IMG/VR virus record: IMGVR_UViG_3300033463_000022
Coordinates: 22,542 to 86,541 of that record
DNA: 64,000 bases
Source: a virus
Taxonomy: Duplodnaviria; Heunggongvirae; Uroviricota; Caudoviricetes
Strand: one strand, 5' to 3'
The translations under genes and the position numbers were made by a program. Numbering within the stretch: position 1 is the stretch's first letter; every line of letters begins with the position of its first letter. The notes below the pieces were generated by a model. That model was not told where the DNA came from. It saw nothing but the letters and a program-made list of their open reading frames with translations, and searched no databases. Shown here one piece after another: positions 2,809-56,712 of this stretch.

Positions 2809-2930
2809 GAAACTGCTCGGATGGCCGTAGTCCCAGTCTGATCAACCGTGCAAGCGAGGAGCAGTATAATATAATATGGGCCTCCGCAGCCGAGGTAGGA
2901 CTCTCTCGTTTGCTGCATTTATAACTCTTT

Positions 2931-4368: not shown

Positions 4369-4396
4369 ATTATTTCGAATAAAGGAGAATATAAAA

Positions 4397-10010: not shown

Positions 10011-10032
10011 TTATTATAAGGAGGAATAAATA

Positions 10033-16029: not shown

Positions 16030-16245
16030 AACCGGACAAGCGCGCCGGAACCGCCTTGAAAGCGGATTGTAGGGAAACCTATGGAGAGCATGCCTTCCGT
16101 CCTGCGCCATATATACAGCATTAACCAGACAAGCGTGCTGGGCTCGCCTCGAAAGCGAAGCGGAGGGAAACCTCTAGGGTGCAAGTCCTTAGTGCTGTGC
16201 CAGCCCGCGAGGGCAAATCGCGCGGACGAAGGATTGTCCGTAATA
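16030..16245 (+). promoter_or_regulatory. structured GC-rich 5' leader of the flagellin gene with two about 57-nt direct repeats carrying GGA motifs
   Basis: AACCGGACAAGCGCGCCGG...GTAGGGAAACCTATGGAG and AACCAGACAAGCGTGCTGG...GGAGGGAAACCTCTAGGG; SD AAGGAGGA also contains GGA. Confidence 0.4.
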
Positions 16246-16266
16246 TTTTTTAAGGAGGAATACATT

Positions 16267-17684: not shown

Positions 17685-17758
17685 TCCGGCTTAGCATAAT
17701 AGTAGTGCAGGGGTCTCTAAAACCTCGGGACTCGGAGCGTAACCGAGAGCCGGTGCCA
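17685..17758 (+). tRNA. candidate amber-suppressor tRNA, anticodon CUA (reads UAG), with Gln-like identity elements
   Basis: Acceptor TCCGGCT/AGCCGGT (1:72 unpaired), D-arm GCAT-AATAGTA-GTGC, stem GGGGT/ACCTC with loop CTCTAAA, T-arm CTCGG-AGCGTAA-CCGAG, discriminator G73, CCA encoded; D and T loops noncanonical. Confidence 0.5.
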
Positions 17759-22437: not shown

Positions 22438-22742
22438 TGCCTCGAATGAGTGGACATAGCAAGGAGCGCTCCGTCGAGCGAGTAGATGGCGTTGATAATT
22501 TCTCCGACGCCCGCAAGTATGCTAAGCAAGCTTGGCAGAGCGGGAACACAATTAATCACTATATTAAATATCCCAAGTTTTTTAGTTATCTGCAAAACAA
22601 AAAGAATCAAACATGTACTTGCTCATTAAGAATTTATAAGGATAATATTTATATATGGAGAGGACGATTGAGGACACTTGTAACTGTCCATCCAATACCC
22701 GATAGATATATTAAAGAAATGGAAGTGATAGATAATGGCTAA
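22437..22742 (+). CDS. hypothetical protein (101 aa)
   Basis: Translationally coupled (TAATG). Confidence 0.4.
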   Translation: MPRMSGHSKERSVERVDGVDNFSDARKYAKQAWQSGNTINHYIKYPKFFSYLQNKKNQTCTCSLRIYKDNIYIWRGRLRTLVTVHPIPDRYIKEMEVIDNG

Positions 22743-23538
22743 TTATCATAGTGATAAATGGATTATGGATAGAATGATGGAGCATTACAAAGAAGGGTGC
22801 TCCATCATTCCAGAAAAACAGGTGGTTGGTCTCTTTTATCAAGGGTCTGGCAACTATGGATTAGATGTTGAAACCTCTGATGTTGACACGCGCATGGCTA
22901 TCGTACCTACTTTTCACGATATTGCGATGAATAAAAAAGCGATTAGTACCACACACATTCGGGCCAACGAAGAGCACATTGACCTAAAAGATATTAGAAA
23001 TCTTTGTGCAACCTTCAAAAAGCAGAATATGAATTTCGTCGAGCTCCTTTTTACACCCTATAAAGAAGTGAACCCCCTCTATCAAGAGCAATGGGATAGG
23101 CTCGTGCGGGAACGCGAGGTCATCGCGCGTTACTCTCCCTATCAGGCGGTCAAGACCATGAAAGGTATCGCTATGGAGAAGTACCATGCGATGGAACACG
23201 AATATCCGTCAAAGTTGGAAGTCTTGGCTAAGTACGGCTACGACCCGAAACAACTCCACCATCTTTTGAGGGTACTCGACTTCTTGGACAGATATATCAG
23301 AGGCGAGGCTTATGAAGATTGTTTGCGGCCGCGCCCTGCCGACCTTGAGTACCTTAAAAAGGTGAAAATGGGATGCCATGACCTTGAAACCGCGCGCGCT
23401 ATCGCGAACGCCGCAATTAAAACCGTCACCGATATCGCTGATGGTTATACTTCCGCCCACGAATGCACTTGCGATCCCTACGCTGAGGAACTAATCGACG
23501 ATGTGCAATATGAAATTATGAAGATTGCCGTAGAATAG
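22735..23538 (+). CDS. putative nucleotidyltransferase (pol-beta superfamily)
   Basis: GSGNYGLDVETSDVDT matches the G[SG]x9-13D.D NTase motif. Confidence 0.5.
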   Translation: MANYHSDKWIMDRMMEHYKEGCSIIPEKQVVGLFYQGSGNYGLDVETSDVDTRMAIVPTFHDIAMNKKAISTTHIRANEEHIDLKDIRNLCATFKKQNMNFVELLFTPYKEVNPLYQEQWDRLVREREVIARYSPYQAVKTMKGIAMEKYHAMEHEYPSKLEVLAKYGYDPKQLHHLLRVLDFLDRYIRGEAYEDCLRPRPADLEYLKKVKMGCHDLETARAIANAAIKTVTDIADGYTSAHECTCDPYAEELIDDVQYEIMKIAVE

Positions 23539-23549
23539 GAGTTAAAATA

Positions 23550-23774
23550 ATGTATCTATATTTTGAACACTCTAATGGCGATCTCTCTTTCATCTGCGAA
23601 TGTAGCAAGGAAGAGGTCGACAAAAAGATTACGGAGTTTGTCCACTCCATCAACCCTAATTACAAAATTCCCTATATGCGTTCTTGGGGTAGCGAAGACA
23701 ATTTCATCACTTACGACATTGGAAGCCACACTGAATTCTTTCATCTGGTGAAAGATCGTCGTTTCGAGAACTAA
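23550..23774 (+). CDS. hypothetical protein (74 aa)
   Basis: ORF with GGAG RBS. Confidence 0.4.
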   Translation: MYLYFEHSNGDLSFICECSKEEVDKKITEFVHSINPNYKIPYMRSWGSEDNFITYDIGSHTEFFHLVKDRRFEN

Positions 23775-25061: not shown

Positions 25062-26444
25062 ATGTCTGAACACGTCGGTTATATCGTGAAGGTTGAATTC
25101 CTTCGTCCGCACTCTAACGCTGATCGCCTCAATATTCTCACCGTTTTCGGCGAAGATACCTGTGTTTCTAAGGAAGTTCAGGTTGGCGATATCGGCATCT
25201 ATTTCCCTTGCGATCTCCAGCTGAGCGAGGAGTACTGCGACCAGAACCACCTTTGCCGCAAGAAGGCAGATGGTACTCCCGATACTGGTTATCTTGAGCG
25301 CAACACTCGTCATGTGACCGCCATCAAGCTCCGCGGTGAGAAGTCTAGCGGTCTCTATATGCCTCTCTCTTCTCTTGCTTACTGCGGCAACGCTTCCTTT
25401 GAGGTCGGTCAGAAGATCGACATGGTGAACGGTCATGAAATCTGCCGCAAGTATATCCCCCGTTCTAACACCCGCCAGGGGCAGGTTAGCGAGGGCAACC
25501 GCACTCGCAAAAAGCGCGTGCCTTTGGCGCCTCTCTTCGCTGAGCACGCTGACACTGAGCAGCTTGCTTACAACCTGGCAGCCTTTAAGCCTGGTGACCT
25601 CGTTGAGATCACCTTGAAGATGCACGGCACTTCTCAGCGTACTGGCTACCTGCCTAAGTACTCTGGCGAAAAGCGCACCTTCTGGCAGAAGCTGTTCAAT
25701 AAGCCTGGCACTCCTATCTACGACTGGGGTTATGTAACCGGCACTCGCCGCACCGTACTTAACGACTTCGACGAGGGCGGCTTCTATGGCAACAACGAGT
25801 TCCGTTCGGGCCCCGCCAAGTTCTTCGAGGGTAAGTTGGAGAAGGGTGAAACTGTCTACTACGAAGTCGTAGGTTTCACCACTTCTGGTGCGCCTATCAT
25901 GGCTTCTCAGTCCAACAAGCAGGTTGATAAGCTTCTTGGCGACAAGAGCTTCTCTCAGAAGTACGGCGAGACTACAGTCTTCTCCTATGGTTGCACTCCG
26001 GACGGTGATCTCCAGCAGGACTTCTATGTCTACCGCATGACCTTCACCAACGAGGATGGCTTCGTCGTAGAGTATACTCCCGACTTCATGCGCTATCGTT
26101 GCGAGCAGATGGGAGCTAAGTGCGTACCGCTGCTTTGGAAGGGATTTATTCCAAAGACGCCAAAGCGTTATCCATCCAATGAAGATGGCCTCACCTTCCG
26201 CGAGGAAGAGTGTAGCGCTGGCGAGTATGTTAAGGCAATCGCCGAGGAATACTTCGACGGTCCCGACCCTGTCGGTAAGACCCACGTTCGCGAGGGCGTT
26301 GTCTGCCGTATCGTAAATCGTCCGAAGTTCTGCGCCTACAAGCACAAGAACTTCTCCTTCAAGGTGCTCGAAGGCCTCATTAAGGAGAACGCGCAGGCTC
26401 CTGACATGGAAGAAGCCGAAGATATCAAGAGCGATGAAATCTAG
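25062..26444 (+). CDS. Rnl2-family ATP-dependent RNA ligase fused to an N-terminal tRNA-binding OB domain; GC-rich, TAG-free
   Basis: Nucleotidyltransferase motif I EITLKMHGTSQRTG matches T4 Rnl2 KIHGTN; N-terminal VKVEFLRPHSNADRLNIL resembles the Myf/CsaA tRNA-binding fold. Confidence 0.65.
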   Translation: MSEHVGYIVKVEFLRPHSNADRLNILTVFGEDTCVSKEVQVGDIGIYFPCDLQLSEEYCDQNHLCRKKADGTPDTGYLERNTRHVTAIKLRGEKSSGLYMPLSSLAYCGNASFEVGQKIDMVNGHEICRKYIPRSNTRQGQVSEGNRTRKKRVPLAPLFAEHADTEQLAYNLAAFKPGDLVEITLKMHGTSQRTGYLPKYSGEKRTFWQKLFNKPGTPIYDWGYVTGTRRTVLNDFDEGGFYGNNEFRSGPAKFFEGKLEKGETVYYEVVGFTTSGAPIMASQSNKQVDKLLGDKSFSQKYGETTVFSYGCTPDGDLQQDFYVYRMTFTNEDGFVVEYTPDFMRYRCEQMGAKCVPLLWKGFIPKTPKRYPSNEDGLTFREEECSAGEYVKAIAEEYFDGPDPVGKTHVREGVVCRIVNRPKFCAYKHKNFSFKVLEGLIKENAQAPDMEEAEDIKSDEI

Positions 26445-27048
26445 CTATAAACAAATAGCTTGCGGCGGCATGGTTGCTGGCTTCCTCATAGGGTGCGCAG
26501 CTGCTGCTAGTACCCTCGCCGCCGCAAGCCTTCCCTTTCTAAAACCCCTCATTTTTCCCTTCGCTCTTCTCTTGATTTGTTATGGCAGATTCCATTTATT
26601 TACAGGAAACCTCTATAAAATTGGAAGAGATGAGTCTCTGTCCGCAATAACTAAATATAACTTACTTGCACTTAACTACATTTCCAATTTGCTAGGAACT
26701 TTTTTGACGAGCCTTCTCATAAAAGTTCCAACAGAAGCAATGATGTTTGATAAAGCAGCGCTCGGCGCAAGGAAGATTTTTTTCTTAGGCATCGGTTGTA
26801 ATATCCTCGTATGTTTAGGTGTTAAGCTCTTTAAAGTCTCTCCTTTCGCTACCTATTGTTGCACTGCTTTGTTTGTAGCTTGCGGATTCGAGCACTCTAT
26901 AGCGGATATGTATTATGCGCTATGTCTTCCATTCTCTTGGTCGTATCTCCTAGGTTTTGGTTCTGTAGTAGTGGTTGTGACTGCTGGTAATATAATAGGT
27001 GCTTTTATTGTGATTTTAATAGAAAGGATAATGGAACATGACTCTTGA
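26434..27048 (+). CDS. polytopic membrane protein (204 aa)
   Basis: Five or six hydrophobic helices. Confidence 0.45.
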   Translation: MKSSYKQIACGGMVAGFLIGCAAAASTLAAASLPFLKPLIFPFALLLICYGRFHLFTGNLYKIGRDESLSAITKYNLLALNYISNLLGTFLTSLLIKVPTEAMMFDKAALGARKIFFLGIGCNILVCLGVKLFKVSPFATYCCTALFVACGFEHSIADMYYALCLPFSWSYLLGFGSVVVVVTAGNIIGAFIVILIERIMEHDS

Positions 27049-30242: not shown

Positions 30243-31526
30243 ATGACACCTATTTACAATGCACGCAAAGAACTTGGCTGGAAGAAGACAGTACTTACGA
30301 GTCTCAACCACCTACTCGCCATGTTCGGCGCTACGATTCTAGTTCCAATCCTTGTACAATCATACGGCTTGCCCCTTTCAATATCTACTGCCCTCTTTAT
30401 GTCAGGAATTGGGACTCTACTCTTTCACCTGTTTACCAAGTTTAAAGTCCCCGCCTATCTCGGCTCTAGCTTCGCCTATCTCGGCGGTTTCGCAACAATA
30501 GCAGGAATGTATGAGGGTGTAGATCCTCAGACCAAGTTAGCCTATGCTTGCGGCGGCATCGTAATGGCTGGTCTAATCTACCTTGTCCTTGCAGGTATTG
30601 TGTATAAAGTGGGCGCAGATAAGGTAATGAAATACCTGCCTCCTGTGGTTACAGGTCCGGTAATTATTCTAATTGGCTTGACTTTAGCGCCGAGTGCTGT
30701 AACGAATGCGGCAATGTGTTGGCCCCTGGCTCTTACTGCCCTTGCCATTATCGTAATCTGTAATATTTATGGGCGAGGTATGGTAAAGATTATGCCTATC
30801 CTTTTAGGTGTAGCTGGTGCGTATATCGCTGCAATGATAGCGCAATACTTCGGAGTAACCAATGTTGATGGAAGTCCTCTGATTACACTTGCGGCAGCCG
30901 CCTCTCCGGTCGGTTTGCCAGACTTCGTGCTCGCCAAGTTCGACATTTCCGCAATTCTCGTAATGGCGCCCATCGCTCTAGCTAGCATGATGGAACACAT
31001 TGGAGATATTAGCTCTATCTCTGCGACAATTGACCGCCCCTTGCTCAGCGATCCCGGCCTACATCGTACACTCATGGGTGACGGATTGGCAACTTCCCTC
31101 GCCGGTCTTTTTGGCGGACCCGCAAACACCACCTATGGCGAAAATACTGGCGTTCTCGTTCTCAGTAAGGTTTATGACCCCTTCGTAGTGGAGCTTGCGG
31201 CGATATTTGCCATGCTCATAGGATTCCTGCCACCGGTCGCCGCAATTATAGGTTCTATTCCTACCGCAGTCATTGGTGGTATCTCCTTCATCCTTTATGG
31301 TATGATCTCTGCTATTGGTGTCCGTAACCTAGTAGAAAGCAAGACGGATCTAAAGGATTCTCGCAACCTTATTATAATTGCCGCTATCTTTGTGTGCGGA
31401 CTCGGGTTTACTAATGGCCTCACATTTAGCATCGGTTCTACTCCGATCACGCTTACTGGGCTCGCTATAGCGGCGGCCGCAGGCACTATTCTAAATGCGG
31501 TTTTACCTAACGAACATAATAATTAA
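30243..31526 (+). CDS. NCS2-family nucleobase (xanthine/uracil) permease
   Basis: Twelve or more TM segments, typical NCS2 layout; GC-rich. Confidence 0.7.
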   Translation: MTPIYNARKELGWKKTVLTSLNHLLAMFGATILVPILVQSYGLPLSISTALFMSGIGTLLFHLFTKFKVPAYLGSSFAYLGGFATIAGMYEGVDPQTKLAYACGGIVMAGLIYLVLAGIVYKVGADKVMKYLPPVVTGPVIILIGLTLAPSAVTNAAMCWPLALTALAIIVICNIYGRGMVKIMPILLGVAGAYIAAMIAQYFGVTNVDGSPLITLAAAASPVGLPDFVLAKFDISAILVMAPIALASMMEHIGDISSISATIDRPLLSDPGLHRTLMGDGLATSLAGLFGGPANTTYGENTGVLVLSKVYDPFVVELAAIFAMLIGFLPPVAAIIGSIPTAVIGGISFILYGMISAIGVRNLVESKTDLKDSRNLIIIAAIFVCGLGFTNGLTFSIGSTPITLTGLAIAAAAGTILNAVLPNEHNN

Positions 31527-33191: not shown

Positions 33192-33443
33192 ATGGACAAC
33201 TTACTTACCGGCTATCTATTTACTATCATAGCACTTTCTCTAGCTGATGGAGTTAGTGGTATAGTTAGTGCTGCGGCAGAAAATCTTAAAGCCACAATAA
33301 ATCTTAGCACTGCAAAGAAACAAATCGAAATACAAAAACTTGCAGATGCTCAAGAGCAGAATGGCGGCATGAGCCGCGCCGTAGGATTTGCAATTCCAGA
33401 AGAAGAGGATGATGAAGAAGATGAATTTGAAGACTAGCCCTGA
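33192..33443 (+). CDS. small membrane protein with acidic C-terminus (possible holin-like), 83 codons, 1 TAG
   Basis: One TM helix then EEEDDEEDEFED-Q-P. Confidence 0.4.
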
Positions 33444-37635: not shown

Positions 37636-37893
37636 TGTTGAAGTTCTACAACGAGAACTTGAATGTGTCAAGCGCCAACAATGCGACAGAGACTGTTTTC
37701 ACTGCGACCTTGTTATGGAGGAGCAAGATATCATTCGAGCACTTACACACGCTATCAATGTTTTAACGCTAGATGTTTGAACATCTAGCGTTTTTATTAG
37801 CTGTAGCTTGATTTTATTATAAAAATAAGGTATAATATATATATATAATAGAAAAAAGTGAATGAAAACTTTAACAAAAGGAGGTTATAACTC

Positions 37894-39786
37894 TTGGCTG
37901 ACAAAACCCTATACACAGAAAAAAGTATCGAGTCACTTAGCCCACTAGAGTTTACAAGGCTCCGGCCGCAGGTATACGCCGGTGATTGTACCTACTCAAC
38001 TCAGCTCCTAGTCGAAATTCTCGCTAATGCGATCGACGAGTTCCGTCTTGGTCACGGCTCGGATATCGACGTCAACATCAATAAGGACATAGTGCTTGTC
38101 CGTGACTATGGACAAGGCTTCCTAGTTAATTCTACCCGCGAAGACGGCAAGACCGTTCTCGAAGCCGCGTTCTCTGTTCTTAACACTTCCGGTAAATACC
38201 ACGATGATGGTGTTTATGAAGGTACGTCACTCGGCTCCTTCGGTATCGGTAGTAAAATCACTACCTTCCTCTCTCATTGGCTCCGTGTAACTACTTACCG
38301 CGATGGGCAATATGAGCAGCTTGATTTCAAGGAAGGTGTTTTTGATAAGCGGCAGGTCGGGAAAACAATCAATCCTCATATCACTGGCACAGAAGTATCT
38401 TGGCAGCCTAGCGAGCAATTCTTCACCCATACCGAGGTAGACGTTCCTATTATTACTAAGCTAATCCAAACGCTTGTGTGTCTGTGTCCCGGGCTCACAA
38501 TTAACCTTCAAGTAAATGGGAATACCTCTCATTATCATTCTGAGCATGGAATTGACGACCTTGTAGACCAAGGTACTAACGGTAAGGAAATCATCAAGAA
38601 CCGTTTCTCTACCCATTTCGAAGAAGGTAAGAATAAACTCGACCTCGTCCTCACCTATACCTCTAACCATTCTCTAACTATTGTTCCTTATGTCAATACA
38701 GGACTTACAGAGAGCGGTCCGCATATCGTCCAGATTAAGACCCTTCTCACTCGCGAGTTCAATAAGTTCTTCCGAGAGAAAGGCTACCTCAAAGAGAAGG
38801 ACGAAAATCTATCGGGCGACGATATCCAAGAAGGTATGTACCTTGTCTTTAATGTCACCGCACCTAATGTGGCTTACGATGCACAGGTCAAGTCCCGTGT
38901 CACTAGGCTGGAAATGAAGCCATTTACTTCTGCTCTTGCTGAAAACTTGCAATTCTGGTTGCAAGCTAATGAGAAGGAAGTTAAAGCAATTGCGGAAAAG
39001 GCATTGACTGCGCGCAAAGCCCGTGAAGCAGCTCGCAAGGCTCGCGATGCAGTCAGGGATATCAAGCCAAAAGAGAAAAACACCCTTAAGGCTAAGATGG
39101 CTTTGAGCGATAAATTTATTGACTGTACTAACAAAGACCCCGATAAGCGTACTTTAATTATCGTCGAAGGCGTGTCCGCGGCAGGAGCAGTTATCGAGGC
39201 TCGTAATCCTCAGACAGATGCCATCTATCTTCTCCGCGGTAAAATTATCAGCCCTCTTAAAACAGATGTTTCTAAGATCCTCGCCAATCAAGAGATGAGC
39301 GATTTAGTGAAGGTTATTGGCGCTGGTTTTGATAAGACTTTTGACCTTAGTAAGATGAACTTCAGTAAGATTCTTATCGCCACCGACCAAGATTCAGATG
39401 GTGAAGATATCGAACTTATGCTCACCACTTTCTTCTTTACGTACATGCGGCCGCTCGTGCTTGCTGGCAAACTCTACCGTGCTGTAACGCCTCTATATAT
39501 CGTCCGCCGCAACGGAAAAGAGCAATACTTCTATAGTGAAGAAGAATACCAAAATTGGCGAAAAGTAGATGGCAAAGGTGATGTTACTCGCGCGAAGGGC
39601 CTTGGTGAATTGAACGCTCCTGACCTGCACGCAGTTTGCTTTGAACACGAACGCTATAAGAGGCTTACGGTTAATGACGAAAAGGCTGTAACCGCTCTGC
39701 TAGAGACCTTGATGGGTAGCGCTATCGAACCCCGCAAACAATATATCTATAATAACGCAGAAAGGCTAGGGTTTAACTTCGTATGA
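37894..39786 (+). CDS. type II DNA topoisomerase large subunit (GyrB/T4 gp39-like: GHKL ATPase plus Toprim)
   Basis: ILANAIDE and GLHH-like ATPase motifs; Toprim EGVSAAG...DQDSDG; TAG-free. Confidence 0.85.
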   Translation: MADKTLYTEKSIESLSPLEFTRLRPQVYAGDCTYSTQLLVEILANAIDEFRLGHGSDIDVNINKDIVLVRDYGQGFLVNSTREDGKTVLEAAFSVLNTSGKYHDDGVYEGTSLGSFGIGSKITTFLSHWLRVTTYRDGQYEQLDFKEGVFDKRQVGKTINPHITGTEVSWQPSEQFFTHTEVDVPIITKLIQTLVCLCPGLTINLQVNGNTSHYHSEHGIDDLVDQGTNGKEIIKNRFSTHFEEGKNKLDLVLTYTSNHSLTIVPYVNTGLTESGPHIVQIKTLLTREFNKFFREKGYLKEKDENLSGDDIQEGMYLVFNVTAPNVAYDAQVKSRVTRLEMKPFTSALAENLQFWLQANEKEVKAIAEKALTARKAREAARKARDAVRDIKPKEKNTLKAKMALSDKFIDCTNKDPDKRTLIIVEGVSAAGAVIEARNPQTDAIYLLRGKIISPLKTDVSKILANQEMSDLVKVIGAGFDKTFDLSKMNFSKILIATDQDSDGEDIELMLTTFFFTYMRPLVLAGKLYRAVTPLYIVRRNGKEQYFYSEEEYQNWRKVDGKGDVTRAKGLGELNAPDLHAVCFEHERYKRLTVNDEKAVTALLETLMGSAIEPRKQYIYNNAERLGFNFV

Positions 39787-39798: not shown

Positions 39799-40485
39799 AT
39801 GGGGTTTATTTATAAAATAAGTTGTCCATATTCTTCAAAAGTCTATATTGGACAAACTATCAATTCAATATAGACGCGATTTCAATAGCATATTAGACGA
39901 GACAGCGGAACAAAACTCGCTTAGGCGTTTCAAAAATATGGAATCGAATCATTTAGCGTTGATTTAGTAGAAGAAGTCGACAACGAACGATTAAATGAGC
40001 GTGAAATTTTTTGGATCAGTCATTATGATTCATATAACCATGGCTATAATATGACTCCTGGCGGACAAACAACGGTTTATGCAGTAGAGCAAACAAAAAA
40101 AGCCGTAGAAAAACGAGACAAAGATACCTTTGAATTATTAGCGGTATATCCTTCTTTAGCCGAAGCAGCTAGAAGTTTAGGACTAGAGGGCGCAGAAAAT
40201 AAACGAAAAAATTTAACAAAATGCTGTCATCGAGAAATCCATGAAATCTATGGTTTCAGATGGAACTTTGTTGGAGAACCGCCTGATACAATAAAAATGG
40301 GCATGGTTAGAAGAATTCCTGTTTATATGTGCGATAAAAACACAAAAGAAATCTTGCAAAAATTTGATAGCGCAAAAGCGGCTAGTATTTATTTGGGTAA
40401 AATAAATGGAAGCCAAATTACTGCCTGTTGCAAGAAGCGTATTCCCAGTGCTTATGGGTATTTTTGGAGATATGTAAATGAATAA
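39799..40485 (+). CDS. GIY-YIG homing endonuclease inserted between the two topoisomerase II subunit genes (228 codons, 3 TAG)
   Basis: MGFIYKISCPYSSKVYIGQT...YWISHYDSYNHGYN plus two repeated IYGFRW/AYGYFWRY helix motifs. Confidence 0.75.
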
Positions 40486-42888: not shown

Positions 42889-42925
42889 TTGACAGAAATT
42901 TCAATATATTATATTATACTTATAA
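42889..42925 (+). promoter_or_regulatory. sigma70 consensus promoter TTGACA-N17-TATTAT
   Basis: Perfect -35 with 17-nt spacer, upstream of the ligase gene. Confidence 0.6.
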
Positions 42926-42992
42926 AGTAAATATATTATAATATATATTATTATTATTATTAAATCTATATTATTGTGAGGAGTCTCTGTAT

Positions 42993-44159
42993 ATGGGTTT
43001 CGATATAGCTAAAGTAGAGAAACTTTATCCCGGCGCAGGTCCTTTCATGCAGGAAGCGATGCTCATATGGAAGCTTCCCGCAGGAAAAGAAAATAAAATG
43101 AGCGAAGTTTGCTCTAATGGCGAATATTTTGCCGAAGAGAAGATTGACGGTGCGTGGTATCAATTCACCAAAGGAACCGGAGGTCAAGAATATCTCTTCG
43201 GTCGCACTACCTCACGCGTAACAGGTCTTATGACAGAAAAGGGACAGAATGTTCCCCACATTCTTTCTGCTCTTAATTGTTTGCCTAACGGGACAGCTTT
43301 GATCGGTGAGGTATATTTCGATGGAGGCACAGCGAGAGATACTGTTACTATTACGGGATGTCTTCCGCAAGAAGCAGTTCGTCGTCAGAATAATCCAAAA
43401 GGAAAAGGTTTAATTAAATATTACGTTCATGATATTATATTCTATGATGGCGAAAATTTAATGGGAACTGGTGCTTTTGATAGATACGCTATCCTCCAAG
43501 CCATCTGGCAGAAGTATGAGTTATCTAAATTTCCTTTCCTACGTCTTGCTACTATTGTTGAAACAGGTATTGAAGAAGAGGTCTCTCGAATCCTCGCTGC
43601 GGGAGGAGAAGGCATGGTATTAAAGAAGAGAGATGCCGTCTATAGCCCAGGAAAGCGCCCTGCATGGAGTGCTATAAAGTTCAAGCAGATGGATTCAGAG
43701 GATCTCGTTTGTACTCGTACAATCGCACCTACAAAAGAATACACTGGTAAGGAACTTGATACATGGCAGTATTGGGGAAGAATGACATATATCTTCAATG
43801 AAACGACTAAAGAAGGGGTTCCTTGTGAAGTTATTTCCTGCTGTGGACCGACCGACGACAGTGATGAATGGTATCCAATAACTAAACCCTATGCTCTTAA
43901 ATGGCCCTCTGCTATTGGTATCGGCGCATATGACGACAATGGCGAGCTAAAAGAAATTGGTACTATTTCGTCTGGTCTTACTGACGCTGATAAACAAGCA
44001 ATGGCTGATAATCCAGATGCTTTTATTGGCAAAGTTATGCATTGTTACGGCATGTCAAGAGATCGAAAAGAGCAAACATTTAGACACTTCTCCTTTGGTG
44101 GTTGGAGAGATGACAAAGATGCTAAAGATTGCAAACTAAGCGAGATCTTTGGCAGCTAA
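42993..44159 (+). CDS. ATP-dependent DNA ligase
   Basis: Adenylation motif EEKIDGAWYQF (KxDG) and OB domain. Confidence 0.8.
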   Translation: MGFDIAKVEKLYPGAGPFMQEAMLIWKLPAGKENKMSEVCSNGEYFAEEKIDGAWYQFTKGTGGQEYLFGRTTSRVTGLMTEKGQNVPHILSALNCLPNGTALIGEVYFDGGTARDTVTITGCLPQEAVRRQNNPKGKGLIKYYVHDIIFYDGENLMGTGAFDRYAILQAIWQKYELSKFPFLRLATIVETGIEEEVSRILAAGGEGMVLKKRDAVYSPGKRPAWSAIKFKQMDSEDLVCTRTIAPTKEYTGKELDTWQYWGRMTYIFNETTKEGVPCEVISCCGPTDDSDEWYPITKPYALKWPSAIGIGAYDDNGELKEIGTISSGLTDADKQAMADNPDAFIGKVMHCYGMSRDRKEQTFRHFSFGGWRDDKDAKDCKLSEIFGS

Positions 44160-44213
44160 TAGTTGAAAAAACAAAAAAAATATTTTATTATATATTCACA
44201 ATAGTAAAGGAGG

Positions 44214-44432
44214 TTGCCAATGACCCGTACTCAGATAAATAAGCTTGCAAATACCATAGTCTCTTATGAGCAAGCCTTAAAAGATCCTAATAACTCGTAT
44301 GAAAAAAAGAAAGAGGCCGAGTCACAAATCAACCAAATTGCTATGATGCTTTCTAGGTTGCCAAACGGTCTACGAGTAATGCAACAAGTGGATGAAGTAG
44401 TACAATTAAAACTAGAGAGCATAAATATTTAG
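44214..44432 (+). CDS. hypothetical protein (72 aa)
   Basis: RBS AAAGGAGG. Confidence 0.45.
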   Translation: MPMTRTQINKLANTIVSYEQALKDPNNSYEKKKEAESQINQIAMMLSRLPNGLRVMQQVDEVVQLKLESINI

Positions 44433-44449
44433 AAAGAAGGATAATTATT

Positions 44450-44722
44450 ATGGCAGCAATGAAAGAGAATTCCCGCAAGGTACTTACCTATCTACAGGAT
44501 CACAATGGCGAAGATCTTATCGCAGCAGACGTCGCCGAGGCTCTTGGGCTCGAGAAGCGTTCTGTCGACGGTATCTTTACTGCATTCCAGAAGAAGGAAC
44601 TTGGCTATCGCCAGGAGACCGAACGCGAGAATGAAGATGGAACCCATTCTAAGGTTAAGCTCCTAAAGCTCACAGATGCCGGGCTTGCATTCAATCCCGA
44701 CGCGGAAGAGAACAAGGACTAA
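44450..44722 (+). CDS. winged-helix DNA-binding protein (putative transcription regulator)
   Basis: LTYLQDHNGEDLIAADVAEALGLEKRSVDGIFTAFQKKELGYR is a MarR/wHTH-like pattern. Confidence 0.5.
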   Translation: MAAMKENSRKVLTYLQDHNGEDLIAADVAEALGLEKRSVDGIFTAFQKKELGYRQETERENEDGTHSKVKLLKLTDAGLAFNPDAEENKD

Positions 44723-44773
44723 GAAACAATAGCGAGAAGTTGATACTTTTAACTTCTCGCTAATTTTCTACCC

Positions 44774-45733
44774 ATGTTTTACGGTTTAATTATCGAAGGC
44801 ATCTGTCTACTTGCTCTTTTTATTCTGTACTTGCGGGCGCGAGGTCAAGCGCGGCATACAGTCTAGCGTAACGACGCCATAGAGCAAGAAAACTAGCAAT
44901 TGGCTAATACAAATGACTAGCTACGTATTGAGTAGATGGCTCTTAATGAGTAGCGCAATGCTTCAGAGAAGCACTTAGAGTCATTAAAAACTTAGGTGTA
45001 GGCATAGGGCAACATTTTATAGAGCTACACTTTAACCACCCAATAGCTTGAAAAAGACGCCAAAGAGCGGGCTGAGCAGAGCTATTAGGCGGCGGCCGCA
45101 AGCCTAGCACAAAAGTATGGTTAGCAAGAAGCTGAATTAGAAACAACTTATTAGCAACACTCATAGTAGTTATTATCCCGTATTAAAGAAGAAGAAAATA
45201 AGCTAAAAGATTTAGAAGATAAATAGCTTGCTTATATTAAAGCAAAACAACGAGAAGAAGAAATTGCTGCTTAGCGAGATTATTATCGACTAGTTCTTGA
45301 AGATATAGATTGTGAAGAGATAAAGCTTCTTCGTAATTTATAGGTACAATTCTCAAGGAAAGAAGCCATCGATAAGCTTATATGGGAGAGTTACTACAAA
45401 GCAGCTTACGACCTCTTGATGACGCATTTGTTCTAGAGTTCTGATAAATTATGCGGCATCTATAAAATCACTAATCTTGAAAACGGTTAGGCGTATATTG
45501 GGCAGTCTGTTGATATAAAAGAGCGGTTTAGATAGCATATCAAATCTGCTCTAACAAGCGGCCCTACAACCAATAAGCTATATCAATAGATGAAGAAATA
45601 CTAGCCCGAAAATTTCACTTTTGAAATACTGGAATCGGTTTCGCGAGATAAATTGAATGAACGAGAATAGTACTGGATAGACTTTTATAAAACAAAAGAC
45701 TATGGAATGAATGGGACAAAAGGTGGGTCATGA
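44774..45733 (+). CDS. TAG-saturated ORF: TM helix plus Gln-rich coiled coil fused to a C-terminal GIY-YIG nuclease domain (319 codons, about 25 in-frame TAG)
   Basis: Frame free of TAA/TGA for 319 codons in AT-rich DNA while carrying about 25 TAG; C-terminal LCGIYKITNLENG-Q-AYIGQSVDIKERFR-Q-HIK...NEREQYWIDFYKT is a GIY-YIG core. Confidence 0.55.
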
Positions 45734-46110
45734 ATACTGATTGGTTAAAAACTAAATATACATGCAGCCTCTGTGGTCGACAAACAGACGTGACAGGAAG
45801 TGTCATCCCCACAGAGTATCAAGGCTATATACTATGTATAGCTTGCGGGCAGATGCTCTATACTTGCGGCACTTGCAAACATAATGCCTGCGGGGTCGAC
45901 AATGCTCTTCATGGCGGCCAATGCCCAGTTAGTCCAGTCGTACAGGTTGTAACGCAAGACGGTTTCATGACAATGGAGCGGCCTGAAATCAATCCGCGAT
46001 TAGTAGATATTTACTGCGAGGATTGCATATGCCGTGACGATAAACGATGCGTACATTTTACAGTACATTCATGTGATAAATATGAGATAATGGAGAAGAA
46101 ATATAAATGA
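45730..46110 (+). CDS. Cys-rich hypothetical protein (126 aa)
   Basis: Multiple CxxC pairs; overlapping start ATGA. Confidence 0.45.
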   Translation: MNTDWLKTKYTCSLCGRQTDVTGSVIPTEYQGYILCIACGQMLYTCGTCKHNACGVDNALHGGQCPVSPVVQVVTQDGFMTMERPEINPRLVDIYCEDCICRDDKRCVHFTVHSCDKYEIMEKKYK

Positions 46111-46772
46111 GTGAACGTATAATTGGAACAGCGAGTTATCGCTGTGTAAATAACGCTGTTGTCTATGACTTGGAAGAAAGTTTGATCGCTAGTGGGTATC
46201 CAATGAGGACGACAGCTCCGGACGGCACAATGACAGATAGGGATATAGCAAGAGGTAGTACGTTGTCTGCCGCAGCGAATGGTATTAACCACGCGCATGA
46301 CCAGTTTCTTTCTGGTATCCGAGTGAACTTCGATCTTACTTTTAGTAATAAGGCTTGGATTGAAGCGGAACGTTATAGGTTCCTAACTTTTGTAAGTTCT
46401 CAGTCTACGATGCATCGCATTACCAAGTTTGATATTAAGAACCAGTGTAATAAGTACGTGCGGCCGGAGGTTATCTCGCTACTAGAGAACTTGGTTCACG
46501 AGTATCATATCATGACCAGTGAACGCGATGAAGCTCCTGGTCTTGAAAAAGCAGAATGGGACAAGAAGCTTGCTGAGAAATACCTCGAAATTCTCTATAA
46601 TACCCCCTCTGGCTTTGAACTCACGGCTCGTATGTCTACCAATTATCGCTGTCTCAAGAATATCTATAACCAGCGTAAAGATCATCGCCTCCCCGAATGG
46701 AGAGAATTTTGCAGCTGGATAGAGACTTTGCCATATGCGCATGAATTAATTCTATGTGATAGCAAGACCTAA
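46107..46772 (+). CDS. ThyX-like flavin-dependent thymidylate synthase homologue with variant RYR motif
   Basis: ERYRFLTFVSSQS parallels ThyX RHRxxSxxxxS; TNYRCLKNIYNQRKDHRLPEWREF parallels the NARSLMNFLNLRAD region. Confidence 0.5.
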   Translation: MSERIIGTASYRCVNNAVVYDLEESLIASGYPMRTTAPDGTMTDRDIARGSTLSAAANGINHAHDQFLSGIRVNFDLTFSNKAWIEAERYRFLTFVSSQSTMHRITKFDIKNQCNKYVRPEVISLLENLVHEYHIMTSERDEAPGLEKAEWDKKLAEKYLEILYNTPSGFELTARMSTNYRCLKNIYNQRKDHRLPEWREFCSWIETLPYAHELILCDSKT

Positions 46773-46781
46773 TGCGCTTTA

Positions 46782-46822
46782 TTGACTTATTATTCATTTT
46801 ATTGTATAATAGATATATAGAA
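46782..46822 (+). promoter_or_regulatory. sigma70-type promoter TTGACT-N17-TATAAT plus AGATATATAGAATG
   Basis: Near-consensus -35/-10 with 17-nt spacer. Confidence 0.6.
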
Positions 46823-46852
46823 TGAAAGAAAAGGATAAAAGGATAAAAAGTT

Positions 46853-47218
46853 ATGAACAAAGCTTATGTATTGTTTGAAGGAATCGTAACTAACTATGGT
46901 ATTTCCCGCGATGATGAAATGGTTAAAGAGCTCTATGAGCTTCTTAACGCGCAGTCTGACCCCAGTAAGCCAGAAGTAACTGAAGCTGGTCTCGCAATTC
47001 TTGAATATATGCAGAATTGCGAAACTTCCAATCTCAAAGCCAAGGATATCGCTGAAGGCATGGGAGTTGCTTCTCGTAAGGTGTCTGGTTCTATTCGTAA
47101 GCTCGTAACAGACCAGTTTGTGGAAAAGGTAGGGCAAAATCCCGTTATCTACTCTCTTACAAGCAAAGGAAAAGAATTTGATACCAAGACTTATAAAGAA
47201 CAACTGCAAGACAAATAA
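46853..47218 (+). CDS. hypothetical wHTH-like protein (121 aa)
   Basis: ORF after a consensus promoter. Confidence 0.45.
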   Translation: MNKAYVLFEGIVTNYGISRDDEMVKELYELLNAQSDPSKPEVTEAGLAILEYMQNCETSNLKAKDIAEGMGVASRKVSGSIRKLVTDQFVEKVGQNPVIYSLTSKGKEFDTKTYKEQLQDK

Positions 47219-47242
47219 GAACAATTAAAGGAGAATTAAGTA

Positions 47243-48199
47243 ATGAAGAAGAATATGTATAACTCTTGCCACATTGAAGGCTATCTCTATGAGCACAACC
47301 TTGAGCTCAAGACTACCGGCGAGAAGTCTAAGAACCCTGGCACTGAATTTATCACTGGGTCGATTGGCATCGCTACCGATGATGATATGATGAATGTCGT
47401 GCAGGTACATTTTACCTATGTAACTGCCGTTACCTCTAAGGGTAAGCCTAATAACACCTTTAATACTCTTCAGGCGATTATTGACGAGAAGCTTCCAAGC
47501 GTCATGGGCTCCGGCAAGGAGAATGCCGCTCGTCTCCGCGTTGACTCTGCTATTGCTTTGAACGAGTGGTATGACAGTCGTACCGAGGGCAATCCTCTTA
47601 TCTCCGTTAAGCGTAACGAGGGCGGTTTTGTCCATCAGATGACCATGGCAGAGCAGCTTAATGAAGATCCTCATGCTCGTGCCACCTTTGATTGCGATAT
47701 CCTTCTCACAAAGGCAACTCGTGTTGAAGCTAACCCCGAGCGCAATATCCCCGAGAAGGTCGTTCTTAAGGGTTACATCTTCGATTTCCGTAAGAGCATT
47801 ATGCCTGTTGAGTTCTCTGTGACCAAGCCTGGCGCTATGAATTACTTTGAGGGTCTTGACCTCTCTAGTAAGAATCCTCTCTTTACCCGTATCAAAGGCG
47901 AGCAGATCTCTCAGACCATTGAGCGCAAGATTGAGGAAGAGTCTGCGTTTGGTGACGTCAACGTTCGCACTGTAAAGAGTTCTCAGCGTGACTTTGTGGT
48001 TACCTGGGCCGCTAAGGAGCCTTATGAGTGGGATACTGAAGATACCCTTCTTGGTTCCGAAGTTGAGAAAGCTCTTGCTGATCGTGAGGTTTACCTTGCT
48101 GATGTGAAGAAGCGCCAGGATGAATATCTTGCCTCTAAGGGTAATGCTATTGCAGATGCCCCTGCTACCACTCCTAAAAAGGGAACTTATGACTTCTAA
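47243..48199 (+). CDS. putative ssDNA-binding or recombination-associated protein (318 aa)
   Basis: Position between regulator and RecA-like ATPase; no firm motif. Confidence 0.35.
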   Translation: MKKNMYNSCHIEGYLYEHNLELKTTGEKSKNPGTEFITGSIGIATDDDMMNVVQVHFTYVTAVTSKGKPNNTFNTLQAIIDEKLPSVMGSGKENAARLRVDSAIALNEWYDSRTEGNPLISVKRNEGGFVHQMTMAEQLNEDPHARATFDCDILLTKATRVEANPERNIPEKVVLKGYIFDFRKSIMPVEFSVTKPGAMNYFEGLDLSSKNPLFTRIKGEQISQTIERKIEEESAFGDVNVRTVKSSQRDFVVTWAAKEPYEWDTEDTLLGSEVEKALADREVYLADVKKRQDEYLASKGNAIADAPATTPKKGTYDF

Positions 48200-53010: not shown

Positions 53011-54282
53011 TTGGACTATACACTTATAAACCCCATAAACCCCAAAATATCCCCTATTGAATAGGTGCTTGTTAATCGAGGGTTTAAACTAGAAGATATC
53101 CCTCATTATCTTCATGTAACGAAAGAGGACAATTTATCTCCGCGACTTTTGAATAATATTGATAGAGCTGTCTCTCTTTTAGGTAAACATATAATGGATG
53201 ATAATTCTCATATCCATATATAGGTAGATAGTGACTGCGATGGTTATACCAGTGCAGCTTGTTTGCTAGATTATATTTACCTAGCTTTTCCAACCGCTAT
53301 ATCAAAGTTCTCCTATTCCTTCCATGATGATAAAACTCACGGCATTGATACAAAAAACATACCAAGTGACACCACATTAGTAATAGCACCTGATGCTTCT
53401 AGTAATGAATATGATACTCATAAAGCTCTTTCAGAAAAAGGCATTGATGTATTGGTAATAGACCACCACCAAGCCGATAGGATCTCTGAGTACGCCTGTG
53501 TTGTGAATAATCAGCTATGTGACTACCCCAATAAGGCATTAAGTGGCGTAGGTGTGGTATATAAAGTTTGTCAGCGCTTCGACGAACTTATGAATACTGA
53601 CTATGCAAACCAACTAGTAGATTTAGTCATGCTGGGGCTCACGGGAGATATGATGGACTTGCGATCTCTTGAGACTAAATATCTCGTAAATCAAGGTATC
53701 GCGCATCTTAGAAACCCGTTTATTAAGGGCATGGCGGAGAAGAATGAACATTCGCTCGGTTCGCAAATTACACCCATTGGTGTTGCTTTCTATATTGTAC
53801 CATATGTTAATGCTGTAACAAGAGTAGGGACACAAGAAGAGAAGTAGCTGCTTTTTAAAAGTATGCTAAACTGGGAAGCTTTTAATATTGTACCCTCTAC
53901 TAAGAAAGGCTGTAAAGGGCAGACAGAAACTATCGTAACACAAGCTGTTCGTACTTGCCAAAATATCAAGAACCGTCAAACAAAAGTACAGGAAGCCGCG
54001 GTAGAAGATCTTGAAGAGCTGATTGCGGCCGCCGGGTTACTGGAGCATAAAGTCTTAATCTTCCAGCTCGATGACTCATTCTCTATTACGCCAGAACTTC
54101 GAGGTCTGATAGCGAATAAGTTCATGGCTAAATATTGTAGACCAGTACTTATGTTGTCACTCACAGAATACGAAGGTAAGCCCGCTTTAATGGGGTCTGC
54201 ACGAGGTTATGAGAAATCAAAACTCTTGGATTTCCGCAAATTCTGTAGGGAATCTGGTCTGGTGTTCTTGGCTGAGGGTTAG
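53011..54282 (+). CDS. RecJ-like DHH/DHHA1 single-strand exonuclease (423 codons, TTG start, 3 TAG)
   Basis: DHH motifs HIHI-Q-VDSDCDGYTSAA and VLVIDHHQ; frame joins three listed ORF fragments across TAGs at 53062, 53221 and 53848; RBS AAAGGA. Confidence 0.65.
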
Positions 54283-54477
54283 CTTTAGTGTGGCCCTAAA
54301 ACTTTTTTCCGTCTTATCAACGGGGTCGCTAATTAAATGGCCAATTCTGGACATTCTTGATTAGTTGGCTAACGAGAAAACCTAAATATAATAGAGGATA
54401 TTATACATGGTAATCTCGTGGGAAGAATTATTCTTTATATGACGTCCTCTTAATTTAGAATTAAGGAGACATAAAGT

Positions 54478-55326
54478 ATGTTAAAAAGCATCTATAAAAT
54501 TACCAATACCCTAAATAACAAATGCTACATCGGTCAAACAGATGACGTAAAACGTAGATTTACTGAGCATAAAGCTCTAGGGTATGGTCGAGAAAATTCC
54601 ATTTTATATCGCGCTATCAAAAAATACGGTCTTGAGAATTTTACATTTGAAGTAATTGAAGAGAATATTGAAAATTATAACGAAAGAGAAAAATATTGGA
54701 TTGCATATTATGATTCATATTAGAGTGGCTACAATATGACACCAGGTGGAGAAGAGCCTCCAGTGAAATATGGAGAAAATCATCCTCTTGCAACGCACTC
54801 AAAAGCCGAATCCGAGGAAGTAAAAAATCTGTTACTGGCAACTCAAATGACCGTAAAAGAAATCGCTCAAAAGATGGCATATAACGTTTCTTCTATCATA
54901 AGAATTAATAATGGAGCACTTTGGCATGATGATACACTCGATTATCCGCTTAGAAAAGAATTAAGTAAAAAATTCAACGAAGACCGTGCATTAAGAATAA
55001 TTGATGACTTGCTAAATACAAGTATGACCCAGAGAGAAATTGCCGTTAAATACGGAGTAGGACGCTCTACAGTAACAGCCATAAACAATGGTTAGAATAA
55101 TAGGCAAGATGATTTAGAGTATCCAATTCGAGATAAAGATAGAGATAAATAGTCAAAACATATTTTTATGATAGATAAAGACACTGACGAAATTCTTAAA
55201 GATTTTGTTAATGCCAAAGAAGCGGCTCGCTATCTTGGCGATGCCGGTATGGCAACTGCATTACAAACATGCGCAAGGGGGAATTCAAGAACTTCCCATG
55301 GATATAAATGGAGATATAAAGAATGA
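54478..55326 (+). CDS. GIY-YIG homing endonuclease (282 codons, 3 TAG)
   Basis: MLKSIYKITNTLNNKCYIGQTDD...KYWIAYYDSY-Q-SGYNMTPGG; C-terminal NUMOD-like repeats. Confidence 0.75.
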
Positions 55327-55613
55327 TTAACCTGTATCGACTATCTCGGGTGAGACCGAGAGTACTGGCACTATTGATACGTGCTGGGAAAAGGAGTTCC
55401 CTTCGGGGTAAGAAATAGTCAGCGCTGCTGGAAACAGTAGAATAATCGCACCCTAATGCTTTCGGTTTTGGAATCTACCTGGAAAACATAGAGAAGTTCA
55501 TCGCTTACTCTGATGAAAAACTCAAAGATATAGAGTTCTCTCCTAGCTACAGAGTAGACTTTATTTTTCAAGGTTCTCAAGTTGACCCGCAGACCGTTCT
55601 TGAAGTTGGCACT

Positions 55614-55925
55614 ATGAAAACTCTATGGGGACAGAATATCGACGAGGCATATGTCGCAGTTGAAAGGCTAAATGTTACTAAAGAAATGGTAACTCTTATG
55701 TCCCGTGATAAAAGCCCAACACTTAAAATTTCTCTACCTAATGGAGTAGCTTGTATCAAATTCAAGTCAAGCGAAGAAGAGTATGAATCTTTGCTGACTG
55801 AAACAGGTTGCGTAACACTTACAATTATTGGTAAGTGTGAAGTAAATAGATACTTTAACTCTGTCACACCACAGATTATTATTGAAGACTACGAAATTGT
55901 TGATCGAATGGATTATTACTTCTGA
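55614..55925 (+). CDS. OB-fold-like protein, possibly the RecJ C-terminal domain separated by the homing-endonuclease insertion
   Basis: Open frame extends upstream to 55446; beta-rich GCVTLTIIGKCEVNRYFNSVTPQIIIEDYEIV pattern. Confidence 0.35.
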   Translation: MKTLWGQNIDEAYVAVERLNVTKEMVTLMSRDKSPTLKISLPNGVACIKFKSSEEEYESLLTETGCVTLTIIGKCEVNRYFNSVTPQIIIEDYEIVDRMDYYF

Positions 55926-55956: not shown

Positions 55957-56712
55957 ATGAATAAACGTATTATTTCTATGTTATTGTGTTTGATTTTAAT
56001 TGTTAGCGGTTGCGGATATCATCCGCAGCTAGCAAGCGCCTACCATGTAGAATATGAACAACATCTATATGGTTATAGAGATATGCCAGCTATAAAGAAG
56101 ATGATTGCTGAGCTTGAAACTCGTATGGAGCTTGCGCACAATATGGCCGAAACTGCTCGTGCTTTGGGGTATGAGGATAGCCACCTGGTTATTCTAACCG
56201 CCAAACAAGAGTACGATGAAGCAGAAAAGCTCAAAGTACAATATGAAAATATTTACAATGACTTAGAAGAACATTGGCATAGCAAAGAAGCTGAATACCC
56301 AGAGGCGGCATATGTTTGGAAAACCTTGATGGATGAAGGATACAACGATGAAGTTATTGCGGGTATAATTGGCAATATGATGGTTGAGTGCGGCGGCCAC
56401 ACCCTGGCGCTCCAACCCACGGTTGCTACAGATTCTTATTATGGTATATGCCAATGGAGTCGCGGATATCCTGATGTTTGGGAAACATCATTAGAGGAAC
56501 AAGTCCAATTCTTGTTATCAACAATCAAATATGAATTAAATACATATGGTTATATGTATAAGAAAGGTGCTAACTATGAGACTTTCTTACTTATGACTGA
56601 TGTACGGCAAGCAGCATTAATGTTTGCTAAATCATATGAACGATGTGGAACTTCAACGCATAAGCTACGCCAAAAGTTAGCTGTTGAAGCATATAATTAC
56701 TTTGTTACTTGA
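55957..56712 (+). CDS. lipoprotein with phage tail-lysozyme-like peptidoglycan hydrolase domain
   Basis: Lipobox LIVSGC; GNMMVECGGH...YYGICQWSRGYP resembles the E-x-G-G...G-[LI]-x-Q-W tail-lysozyme motif. Confidence 0.5.
   Translation: MNKRIISMLLCLILIVSGCGYHPQLASAYHVEYEQHLYGYRDMPAIKKMIAELETRMELAHNMAETARALGYEDSHLVILTAKQEYDEAEKLKVQYENIYNDLEEHWHSKEAEYPEAAYVWKTLMDEGYNDEVIAGIIGNMMVECGGHTLALQPTVATDSYYGICQWSRGYPDVWETSLEEQVQFLLSTIKYELNTYGYMYKKGANYETFLLMTDVRQAALMFAKSYERCGTSTHKLRQKLAVEAYNYFVT

Follow-up and report, generated by a model that had tools for sequence, protein, structure and literature searches.

Can a reading frame interrupted two dozen times by TAG be a functional gene and, if so, why would its product be written in this way? 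The question is raised by positions 44774-45733 of a 64,000-nucleotide stretch of a caudoviricete genome (IMG/VR record IMGVR_UViG_3300033463_000022, record positions 22,542 to 86,541), hereafter the window. An earlier note, made from the sequence alone, had described this frame as saturated with TAG codons and as encoding an N-terminal transmembrane (TM) helix, a Gln-rich coiled coil and a C-terminal GIY-YIG nuclease domain. As described below, the frame is a genuine full-length gene, and its family uses TAG far more often than do neighboring genes. With moderate confidence, the product is explained as a GIY-YIG endonuclease, predicted to be catalytically competent and tethered by its TM helix to the cytoplasmic face of the membrane, the expression of which would be held by stacked locks that include suppressor gating.

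A full-length gene read through TAG codons

The frame comprises 320 codons, including a terminal TGA that is its only TGA; TAA does not occur, and TAG occurs 24 times (7.5% of 319 codons). The earlier note's description of a TAG-rich frame that is free of TAA and TGA over 319 codons was therefore accurate, although its approximate figures of about 25 TAG and about 8 percent give way to these exact ones. Because the remaining two frames of the same segment carry 12 and 28 TAA and TGA codons, this frame has been kept open for everything but TAG. Its 36 putative glutamine codons consist of 24 TAG, 10 CAA and 2 CAG. TAG accounts for a share of only 0.11 of the glutamine codons in the other open reading frames (ORFs) of the window, at which the probability of finding at least 24 among 36 is 3e-15, and the excess is also seen when the comparison is made with the pooled glutamine codons of other TAG-using window genes (24/36 versus 35/106; Fisher p = 7e-4). 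The first TAG is codon 31, and the standard code would thus yield only a 30-residue peptide, as had been claimed. In recoded members of the family, the first TAG is mostly found at codons 23-45, directly after the TM helix.

Comparison with homologues settles the coding status of the frame. When TAG is translated as glutamine, the product matches a 319-residue database entry (P0001) at 100% identity, and the protein database holds 1,752 homologues; among the matches listed, most are 290-370 residues in length and cover 80-100% of the query. The family forms approximately 700 clusters at 50% identity and is without annotation. Conservation of the N-terminal region as coding sequence, which the earlier note had proposed examining in related phages, was evident in an alignment of 14 members (alignment A1; 49-76% identity), which is conserved over its whole length, the N-terminal TM, helix and middle regions included. 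Homologues from non-recoded phages are of equal length and contain no TAG.

An alternative possibility is that the first ~640 nt are a noncoding, TAG-rich leader, or that the gene is a decaying pseudogene, and that a short GIY-YIG product is made from an internal start, for which the earlier note had suggested the ATG at 45419. The standard-code ORF list, which gives peptides of at most 30 residues in this frame, is what such a model would predict. However, 319 codons lack TAA and TGA where the other frames are repeatedly closed, and the N-terminal 226 residues are conserved as protein across hundreds of clusters. Furthermore, TAG codons run on through the GIY-YIG domain: translation from the internal ATG would encounter a TAG five codons later, and six TAG codons lie within or just before the domain, so that this start would not give the standalone product that had been envisaged. 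Together with the non-recoded homologues of the same length, these findings leave the leader or pseudogene model with next to no probability; as a noncoding leader, it is ruled out by the homologue comparison, and 44774-45733 is a genuine full-length gene.

TAG is read as glutamine in this family, as judged from its alignment partners. In homologue pairs of 70-97% identity, TAG was found opposite TAG in 73% of cases, opposite CAA or CAG glutamine in 22% and opposite other residues in 5% combined (Ser 3%, each other residue <1%), and these partners mirror those of CAA and CAG codons. The invariant glutamines Q244 (in the YIGQS motif) and Q254 are encoded by TAG in 50% and 34% of recoded members, respectively, and otherwise by CAR. 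Close pairs were used in place of all-family columns, which are noisy on account of the poor alignment of the coiled coil and in which the residues opposite TAG were E (18%), Q (16%) and K (14%). A suppressor tRNA with anticodon CUA is encoded in the window (Table 1); it would be required to read the 24 TAG codons, and its charging with glutamine is predicted. The verbatim database match, the homologues and this tRNA together bear out the full-length, suppressor-dependent reading of the earlier note.

Two side observations concern decoding elsewhere in the window. ARAGORN assigned a four-base anticodon, gttt, to a second tRNA at 4045-4118 (Rfam tRNA, 46.6 bits) and left its amino acid undetermined; the tRNA may resemble a frameshift suppressor, or its loop may have been parsed wrongly. 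In three ORFs (22735-23550, 25062-26450 and 33192-33443), the sole TAG lies 1-3 codons ahead of the TAA or TGA at the end. TAG is probably still a stop in these ORFs, with a back-up stop right behind it, and would therefore be used in two ways in one genome.

A predicted membrane-tethered GIY-YIG nuclease

The protein consists of four parts (Table 1). Residues 1-20 are hydrophobic, with a Kyte-Doolittle 19-residue mean of 2.2-2.3, and a hydrophobic N-terminus followed by Lys or Arg is kept in all homologues. By the positive-inside rule, the topology would be N-out/C-in, which would place the catalytic domain in the cytoplasm. An AlphaFold model shows one continuous helix over residues 2-167 (predicted local distance difference test score, pLDDT, 82-95), presumably a coiled coil, whose length differs among homologues by insertions of up to ~60 residues. 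The helical mini-domain that follows matched no Pfam family, and a profile of it finds 704 cluster representatives, almost all of which are 300-350 residues in length with an identical layout. The C-terminal domain matches PF01541 (E=1.5e-9; 38.4 bits, cut-off 22.6) and TIGR01453 (E=1.2e-19), has the alpha/beta GIY-YIG fold and is nearest to I-TevI. Residues Y230, Y241, R251, H255, E298 and N313 are invariant in alignment A1 and align with Y6, Y17, R27, H31, E75 and N90 of I-TevI. By these sequence features, the protein is a member of the GIY-YIG superfamily with an intact active site, and nuclease activity is predicted. Thus, all three elements described in the earlier note were recovered, as was its remark that the domain order is atypical for homing endonucleases, the catalytic domain lying at the C-terminal end of the 319 residues. 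A DUF4041/T5orf172-like or other known N-terminal domain was considered and rejected, as searches of Pfam, PHROG, NCBIfam and PADLOC with the query and 10 diverse members matched the GIY-YIG part only.

Table 1. Features of the nuclease locus and the cognate suppressor tRNA (window positions)
Feature	Position	Strand	Remarks
Suppressor-read nuclease gene	44774..45733	+	319 sense codons, 24 TAG = Gln, TGA stop, no upstream Shine-Dalgarno sequence
N-terminal TM helix (residues 1-21), then R21, R23, R27	44774..44836	+	hydropathy; conserved K/R after the helix
Long Gln/Glu/Lys-rich helix (residues 22-167), presumed coiled-coil stalk	44837..45274	+	17 of the 24 TAG
Family-specific helical mini-domain (residues 177-219)	45302..45430	+	motif DYYRL...LLR.LQ...K.AIDKLIWE.YYK; invariant columns in alignment A1
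GIY-YIG catalytic domain (residues 227-311)	45452..45706	+	TAG at codons 239, 254, 272, 277, 299
Suppressor tRNA, anticodon CUA	17685..17758	+	ARAGORN; Rfam tRNA 40.8 bits; anticodon loop CTCTAAA in the sequence
Terminator-like element: 14-bp hairpin (44730-44762), then ATTTTCT	44730..44770	+	consensus scan; hairpin ends 11 nt before the ATG
up90, 90-residue acidic protein, winged-helix-like by eye	44450..44722	+	0 TAG, good Shine-Dalgarno sequence
Cys-rich 126-residue protein gene	45730..46110	+	ATG overlaps nuclease TGA (ATGA); own Shine-Dalgarno sequence AGGTG; 0 TAG

Two features of this protein recall known phage proteins. Its chemistry recalls that of T4 endonuclease II (DenA), which is of the GIY-YIG type and introduces nicks into host DNA; however, the T4 enzyme is soluble and early, has neither TM helix nor stalk and shares 13% identity with the window nuclease. 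The phi29 protein p16.7 is laid out as an N-terminal TM segment, a coiled coil and a C-terminal DNA-interacting domain. An integral membrane protein with affinity for phage DNA and terminal protein, p16.7 serves to anchor replication at the membrane (PMC4974454). Both are proteins of Gram-positive-host phages that link, or would link, DNA transactions to the membrane, although p16.7 is small, noncatalytic and early. A literature search found no paper on a membrane-anchored coiled-coil GIY-YIG phage protein.

Phage Phass-1 (OQ749652.1) is the only record that carries the family-specific mid-domain among 50,697 GenBank phage genomes; a nucleotide search of this set with 42900-47300 of the window gave zero matches. 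The Phass-1 homologue has 326 residues and 8 TAG codons and is annotated, under the standard code, as two "hypothetical protein" fragments, WIC39637 and WIC39636. The term "GIY" does not occur in the Phass-1 paper (PMC10607447). The homologue is followed, at a distance of ~400 nt on its own strand, by two tRNA-Sup-CTA genes (OQ749652.1 62445-62610; L084 9809-9974), and the most TAG-dependent gene of that arm thus adjoins its suppressors.

Because its best profile matches are to homing families (phrog_7168, phrog_314, TIGR01453 and PADLOC HEase), the gene might be regarded as a free-standing, selfish, mobile GIY-YIG homing endonuclease, in which TAG codons merely delay expression, as in the intron endonuclease of Agate phages. 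The similarity of the catalytic domain to I-TevI and the presence of 3-4 TAG codons in each of the four bona fide GIY-YIG homing genes of the window agree with this idea. In I-TevI-type homing endonucleases (T4 I-TevI, Seg), however, an N-terminal catalytic domain is followed by a linker and a DNA-binding domain; the window nuclease has neither of the latter, and its catalytic domain is preceded by the TM helix, the long helix and a private mini-domain that is confined to this architecture. No NUMOD, IENR1, helix-turn-helix or zinc finger was found in the query and 10 diverse members, and in the true homing genes of the window, the layout is reversed and the GC content at third codon positions (GC3) is much lower. 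Furthermore, the gene does not move: a homologue of the upstream gene up90 (45-73% identity) is directly upstream of the nuclease gene in 62/68 loci, among nuclease homologues with identities down to ~30%, and in 61 of these 62 loci, up90 starts 294-373 nt upstream of the nuclease start. YorF is found downstream in 61/68 loci and DNA ligase upstream in 42/68. Based on this conserved synteny, the reversed domain order and the missing DNA-binding module, it was concluded that the sequence is not that of a homing endonuclease, and we regard this alternative as very unlikely.

Instead, the nuclease gene is inherited vertically and belongs to the core gene set of uncultivated gut phages that form a large group related to Phass-1 and possess an SPbeta-like replication module. 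It is surrounded by replication genes, including those for UDG, gyrase B and A, ligase, YorF, AAA_24, DnaB, a RecJ-like DHH protein and the Pol III alpha subunit. No other gene is as consistently linked to it as up90, the product of which gave zero matches in Pfam and PHROG. up90 could be a DNA-binding or regulatory partner for an enzyme that lacks a DNA-binding domain. The downstream Cys-rich gene is conserved in only 1/68 loci. Small proteins flank the nuclease operon on both sides, up90 and a TrmB-like protein (46853-47218). The hosts are probably Bacillota, as suggested by the binning of homologue-bearing contigs with Eubacterium, Oscillospiraceae, Lachnospiraceae, Clostridia and Bacilli, by AAGGAG-type Shine-Dalgarno (SD) sequences and by the SLH domain of a neighboring endolysin. 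The GC and GC3 values of the nuclease gene (0.38 and 0.39) are inside the range of window genes. In view of these values and the conserved synteny, horizontal transfer of the gene from a more heavily recoded phage was rejected as unsupported.

The classical GIY-YIG homing genes of the window, with N-terminal catalytic domains, are located at 4396-5322, 18133-18795, 39799-40485 and 54478-55326, have GC3 values of ~0.26 and stand amid TAG-free genes; one lies between gyrB and gyrA. The last of the four is contained in a 1.17-kb insert that splits the RecJ-like DHH exonuclease gene (53011-55922): residues 1-423 of the 582-residue orthologue from a 146-kb contig (L003) correspond to 53011-54279, and residues 423-582 to 55446-55922. 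The insert is probably an intron with a homing endonuclease gene; Rfam identified no group I intron in it at the gathering threshold. A suspected split of gyrB near 38290-38836 proved to be wrong, as the frame 37891-39786 is open.

TAG usage and further putative restraints on expression

Comparisons of TAG usage across loci, which cover the neighbors within ±10 kb of the nuclease gene, revealed that the bias is a family-wide trait. Over 69 loci, TAG constitutes a median of 2.6% of the codons of the nuclease gene versus 0.19% of those of its neighbors, and the nuclease gene is the most TAG-dense gene in 45 of the 69. In a set dereplicated at 90% identity and restricted to recoded phages (n=30), the TAG share of glutamine codons is 0.37 in the nuclease gene and 0.064 in neighboring genes (Wilcoxon p=4.7e-9), and the nuclease gene has the highest share in 19 of the 30 lineages. 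For example, the syntenic orthologue in L003 contains 13 TAG codons, while the ligase, gyrase B and A, YorF, AAA_24 and DnaB genes contain none. The bias is not confined to the helix: its family-wide share is 0.49 in the helix and 0.42 in the conserved C-terminal half, and 7 of the 10 glutamine codons in the middle and catalytic part of the window gene are TAG. Between the window and L003 orthologues, seven sites pair a window TAG with an L003 CAR and one shows the reverse, a net gain of TAG in the window lineage. Thus, the nuclease gene is preferentially recoded relative to its neighbors, and it can be stated securely that it is coded like a late gene while standing amid standard-code genes.

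Other TAG-rich genes of these neighborhoods include an endolysin gene (Phage_lysozyme2, Amidase_2 and SLH domains; 9-11 TAG) and genes for holin-like small TM proteins, the RecJ-like exonuclease and homing endonucleases. Because these have hazardous or late functions, the pattern matches the published model of preferential recoding, in which translation is blocked until the code switches (Borges et al., preprint 10.1101/2021.08.26.457843). Among the preferentially recoded genes named in that preprint are those for an amidase, a spanin and a tail tube protein in crAss-like phages and for a group I intron endonuclease and a TM protein in Agate phages. As in those cases, one family uses the reassigned stop far above the synonymous sense codons amid standard-code early genes. 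The present case differs in protein family, architecture and clade (Bacillota phages with an SPbeta-like replication module), in being a core gene of the replication module rather than of a lysis cassette or intron, and in having a conserved terminator-like hairpin and no SD sequence. The holin-like TM proteins of two loci (L007 ~2822-3166; L008 ~1944-2267, 7.1 kb upstream of the nuclease gene) have 107-114 residues, 3-5 TAG codons and no Pfam match; such genes, with TAG at up to 4.4% of codons, alone surpass the TAG density of the nuclease gene in some loci.

Two features upstream of the gene point to restraint of a different kind. The terminator-like hairpin of the window (Table 1) has a predicted RNA folding energy of -24.4 kcal/mol (z = -5.9), and none of 200 shuffled sequences was as stable. 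By a strict rule, an equivalent GC-rich hairpin with a T-run, built from different stem sequences, precedes the nuclease gene at 31/48 distinct homologue loci versus 6/635 other genes of the same loci; its median distance from the ATG is 12 nt, several more loci show it by eye, and it is present in non-recoded members as well. This evidence consists of per-sequence folds and a motif count with a background control; RNAalifold found no consensus structure in 27 upstream regions, in which MAFFT had left the hairpins out of register. The second feature is the missing SD sequence: an AAGGAG-like sequence precedes 47/58 window genes and is absent from the nuclease gene, and across the family, an SD sequence was found at 7/48 nuclease loci versus 372/654 other genes. 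A distant subfamily (L078-L082) has its own TATAAT-like element and SD sequence instead. Because there is no room for a promoter between hairpin and ATG, the gene would probably be reached only by read-through transcription. To judge from these conserved sequence features, the hairpin and the SD-less start constitute two brakes in addition to TAG.

A related arrangement is known from T4. There, homing endonuclease genes within early and middle transcription units are silenced by a highly stable hairpin that lies in, or immediately upstream of, the ribosome-binding region, and intrinsic terminators lie on both sides of segD (Edgell et al., 2010, PMC2988022). In T4, the hairpin hides an existing SD sequence and an internal late promoter lifts the block, whereas the window nuclease gene has no SD sequence and no recognizable promoter between hairpin and ATG. 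Beyond hairpin control of this kind, the genetic code would add a further layer.

Does the TAG density itself carry regulatory meaning? TAG codons might have accumulated neutrally in a late, fast-evolving and dispensable gene, as a Gln/Glu/Lys-rich coiled coil can tolerate many of the single-step changes that lead to TAG (from CAG, GAG, AAG, TTG, TGG and TCG). We consider this possible but doubtful. Several observations, which weigh against a regulatory reading, lend it substance. In Phass-1 and the window, the two genomes in which the nuclease gene was compared with late genes of the same genome, its TAG share is matched by other genes: in Phass-1, a complete genome, the homologue (share 0.33) ranks 9th of 131 ORFs in TAG density and, despite belonging to the small number of replication-arm genes that use TAG, does not exceed the late and structural genes (0.29-0.75), while the window's glycosyltransferase gene (8215-9189), with TAG at 8 of 12 glutamine codons, equals the nuclease gene's share of 0.67. 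A search for further structural modules with the Phass-1 TerL brought up only near-identical relatives of Phass-1, none of which lay on a contig with one of the nuclease loci. The density of 7.5% is therefore partly the product of late-class usage (share 0.67) and a Gln-rich helix (11% Gln). In relatives, the residue opposite TAG is in many cases E, K, L, W or S, as would be expected if single-base changes pile up in a tolerant coiled coil; in L003, 11 of the 24 window TAG codons face E, L, K, W, S, G or V, mostly one-step neighbors of TAG, and the mixed residues opposite TAG in the all-family columns mentioned above accord with this. Total glutamine content is also greater in recoded than in non-recoded members (7.7% versus 5.5%), and published time series associate in-frame TAG with fast-evolving genes (10.1101/2023.08.07.552389). 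Finally, non-recoded homologues keep the hairpin and SD-less start with no TAG, so that TAG is not essential to regulation of the family, and a Phage_lysozyme2 homologue in the window (55957-56712) has no TAG.

Nevertheless, neutral accumulation does not account readily for a bias that is as strong in the conserved middle and catalytic part as in the helix and that affects invariant glutamine sites. The nuclease gene has the highest TAG share in most of the dereplicated lineages despite TAG-free surroundings, the bias coincides with two further conserved expression brakes, and the protein is well conserved rather than decaying.

Other observations on the window can be recorded here. The family-2 glycosyltransferase gene adjoins tail-fiber-like genes (9204-12039) with 3-4 TAG codons each. 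GC3 values of individual window genes vary from 0.25 to 0.66, and those of 16081-17466, 18823-20343 and 25062-26450 exceed 0.6, which suggests that these three genes were recently acquired. A full-length xanthine/uracil permease (Pfam E=2e-82) is encoded at 30243-31526 of this phage genome.

Proposed role and significance

In the favored explanation, that of a nuclease kept under several locks, the single N-terminal TM helix and the long helical stalk would hold the catalytic domain at the cytoplasmic membrane face. The terminator-like hairpin would limit transcription to read-through, and because it abuts the ribosome landing site, where there is no SD sequence, it may limit initiation as well. 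Because recoded lineages write a third to two thirds of the glutamine codons as TAG, translation under the host code would halt at codon 31, right after the TM helix. The full-length enzyme would be made only once tRNA(CUA) becomes abundant, with a yield that drops multiplicatively for each added TAG, and the nuclease gene might in this way be set apart from the TAG-free replication genes around it. The substrate is perhaps DNA close to the membrane, either that of the host or other unprotected DNA, at a late stage of infection; resolving of replication intermediates and exclusion of superinfecting DNA are alternative possibilities.

According to a bolder proposal, which we think unlikely, the serial TAG codons would act as a digital fuse and let a single gene give rise to two products; selection would have tuned how many TAG codons there are, so as to time or attenuate the production of a toxic membrane nuclease. 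Before the code switch, ribosomes would stop at the first TAG and release only the ~30-residue membrane peptide, leaving the downstream message untranslated. This early stop may lower expression of the genes behind the nuclease, and an early role for the peptide itself is conceivable. Once the code has switched, nuclease yield would, on this view, vary as roughly the 24th power of suppression efficiency and result in an ultrasensitive, all-or-none late burst.

Recoding, suppressor tRNAs and the preferential recoding of hazardous genes were known already. The novelty lies in the gene family with its architecture, in its place in the core of the replication module, in a bias that recurs over many lineages of another clade, and in the co-occurrence of this bias with a conserved terminator and an SD-less start. 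Stop recoding in phages is thought to time the production of dangerous late proteins, and evidence for this has so far come from a few families, mostly in crAss-like and Agate phages. The nuclease family adds an unrelated clade and a very large protein family in which extreme bias recurs in many independent lineages. Because the terminator and the missing SD sequence coincide with the TAG bias, they argue, independently of the code, that tight restraint of the product is needed, and a small, TAG-rich gene of this kind is a good test case for the lock hypothesis. While standard-code annotation hides the nuclease gene and leaves it as fragments in GenBank, reading it through TAG defines an uncharacterized, putatively membrane-tethered GIY-YIG nuclease at the core of the replication module of abundant Bacillota gut phages.

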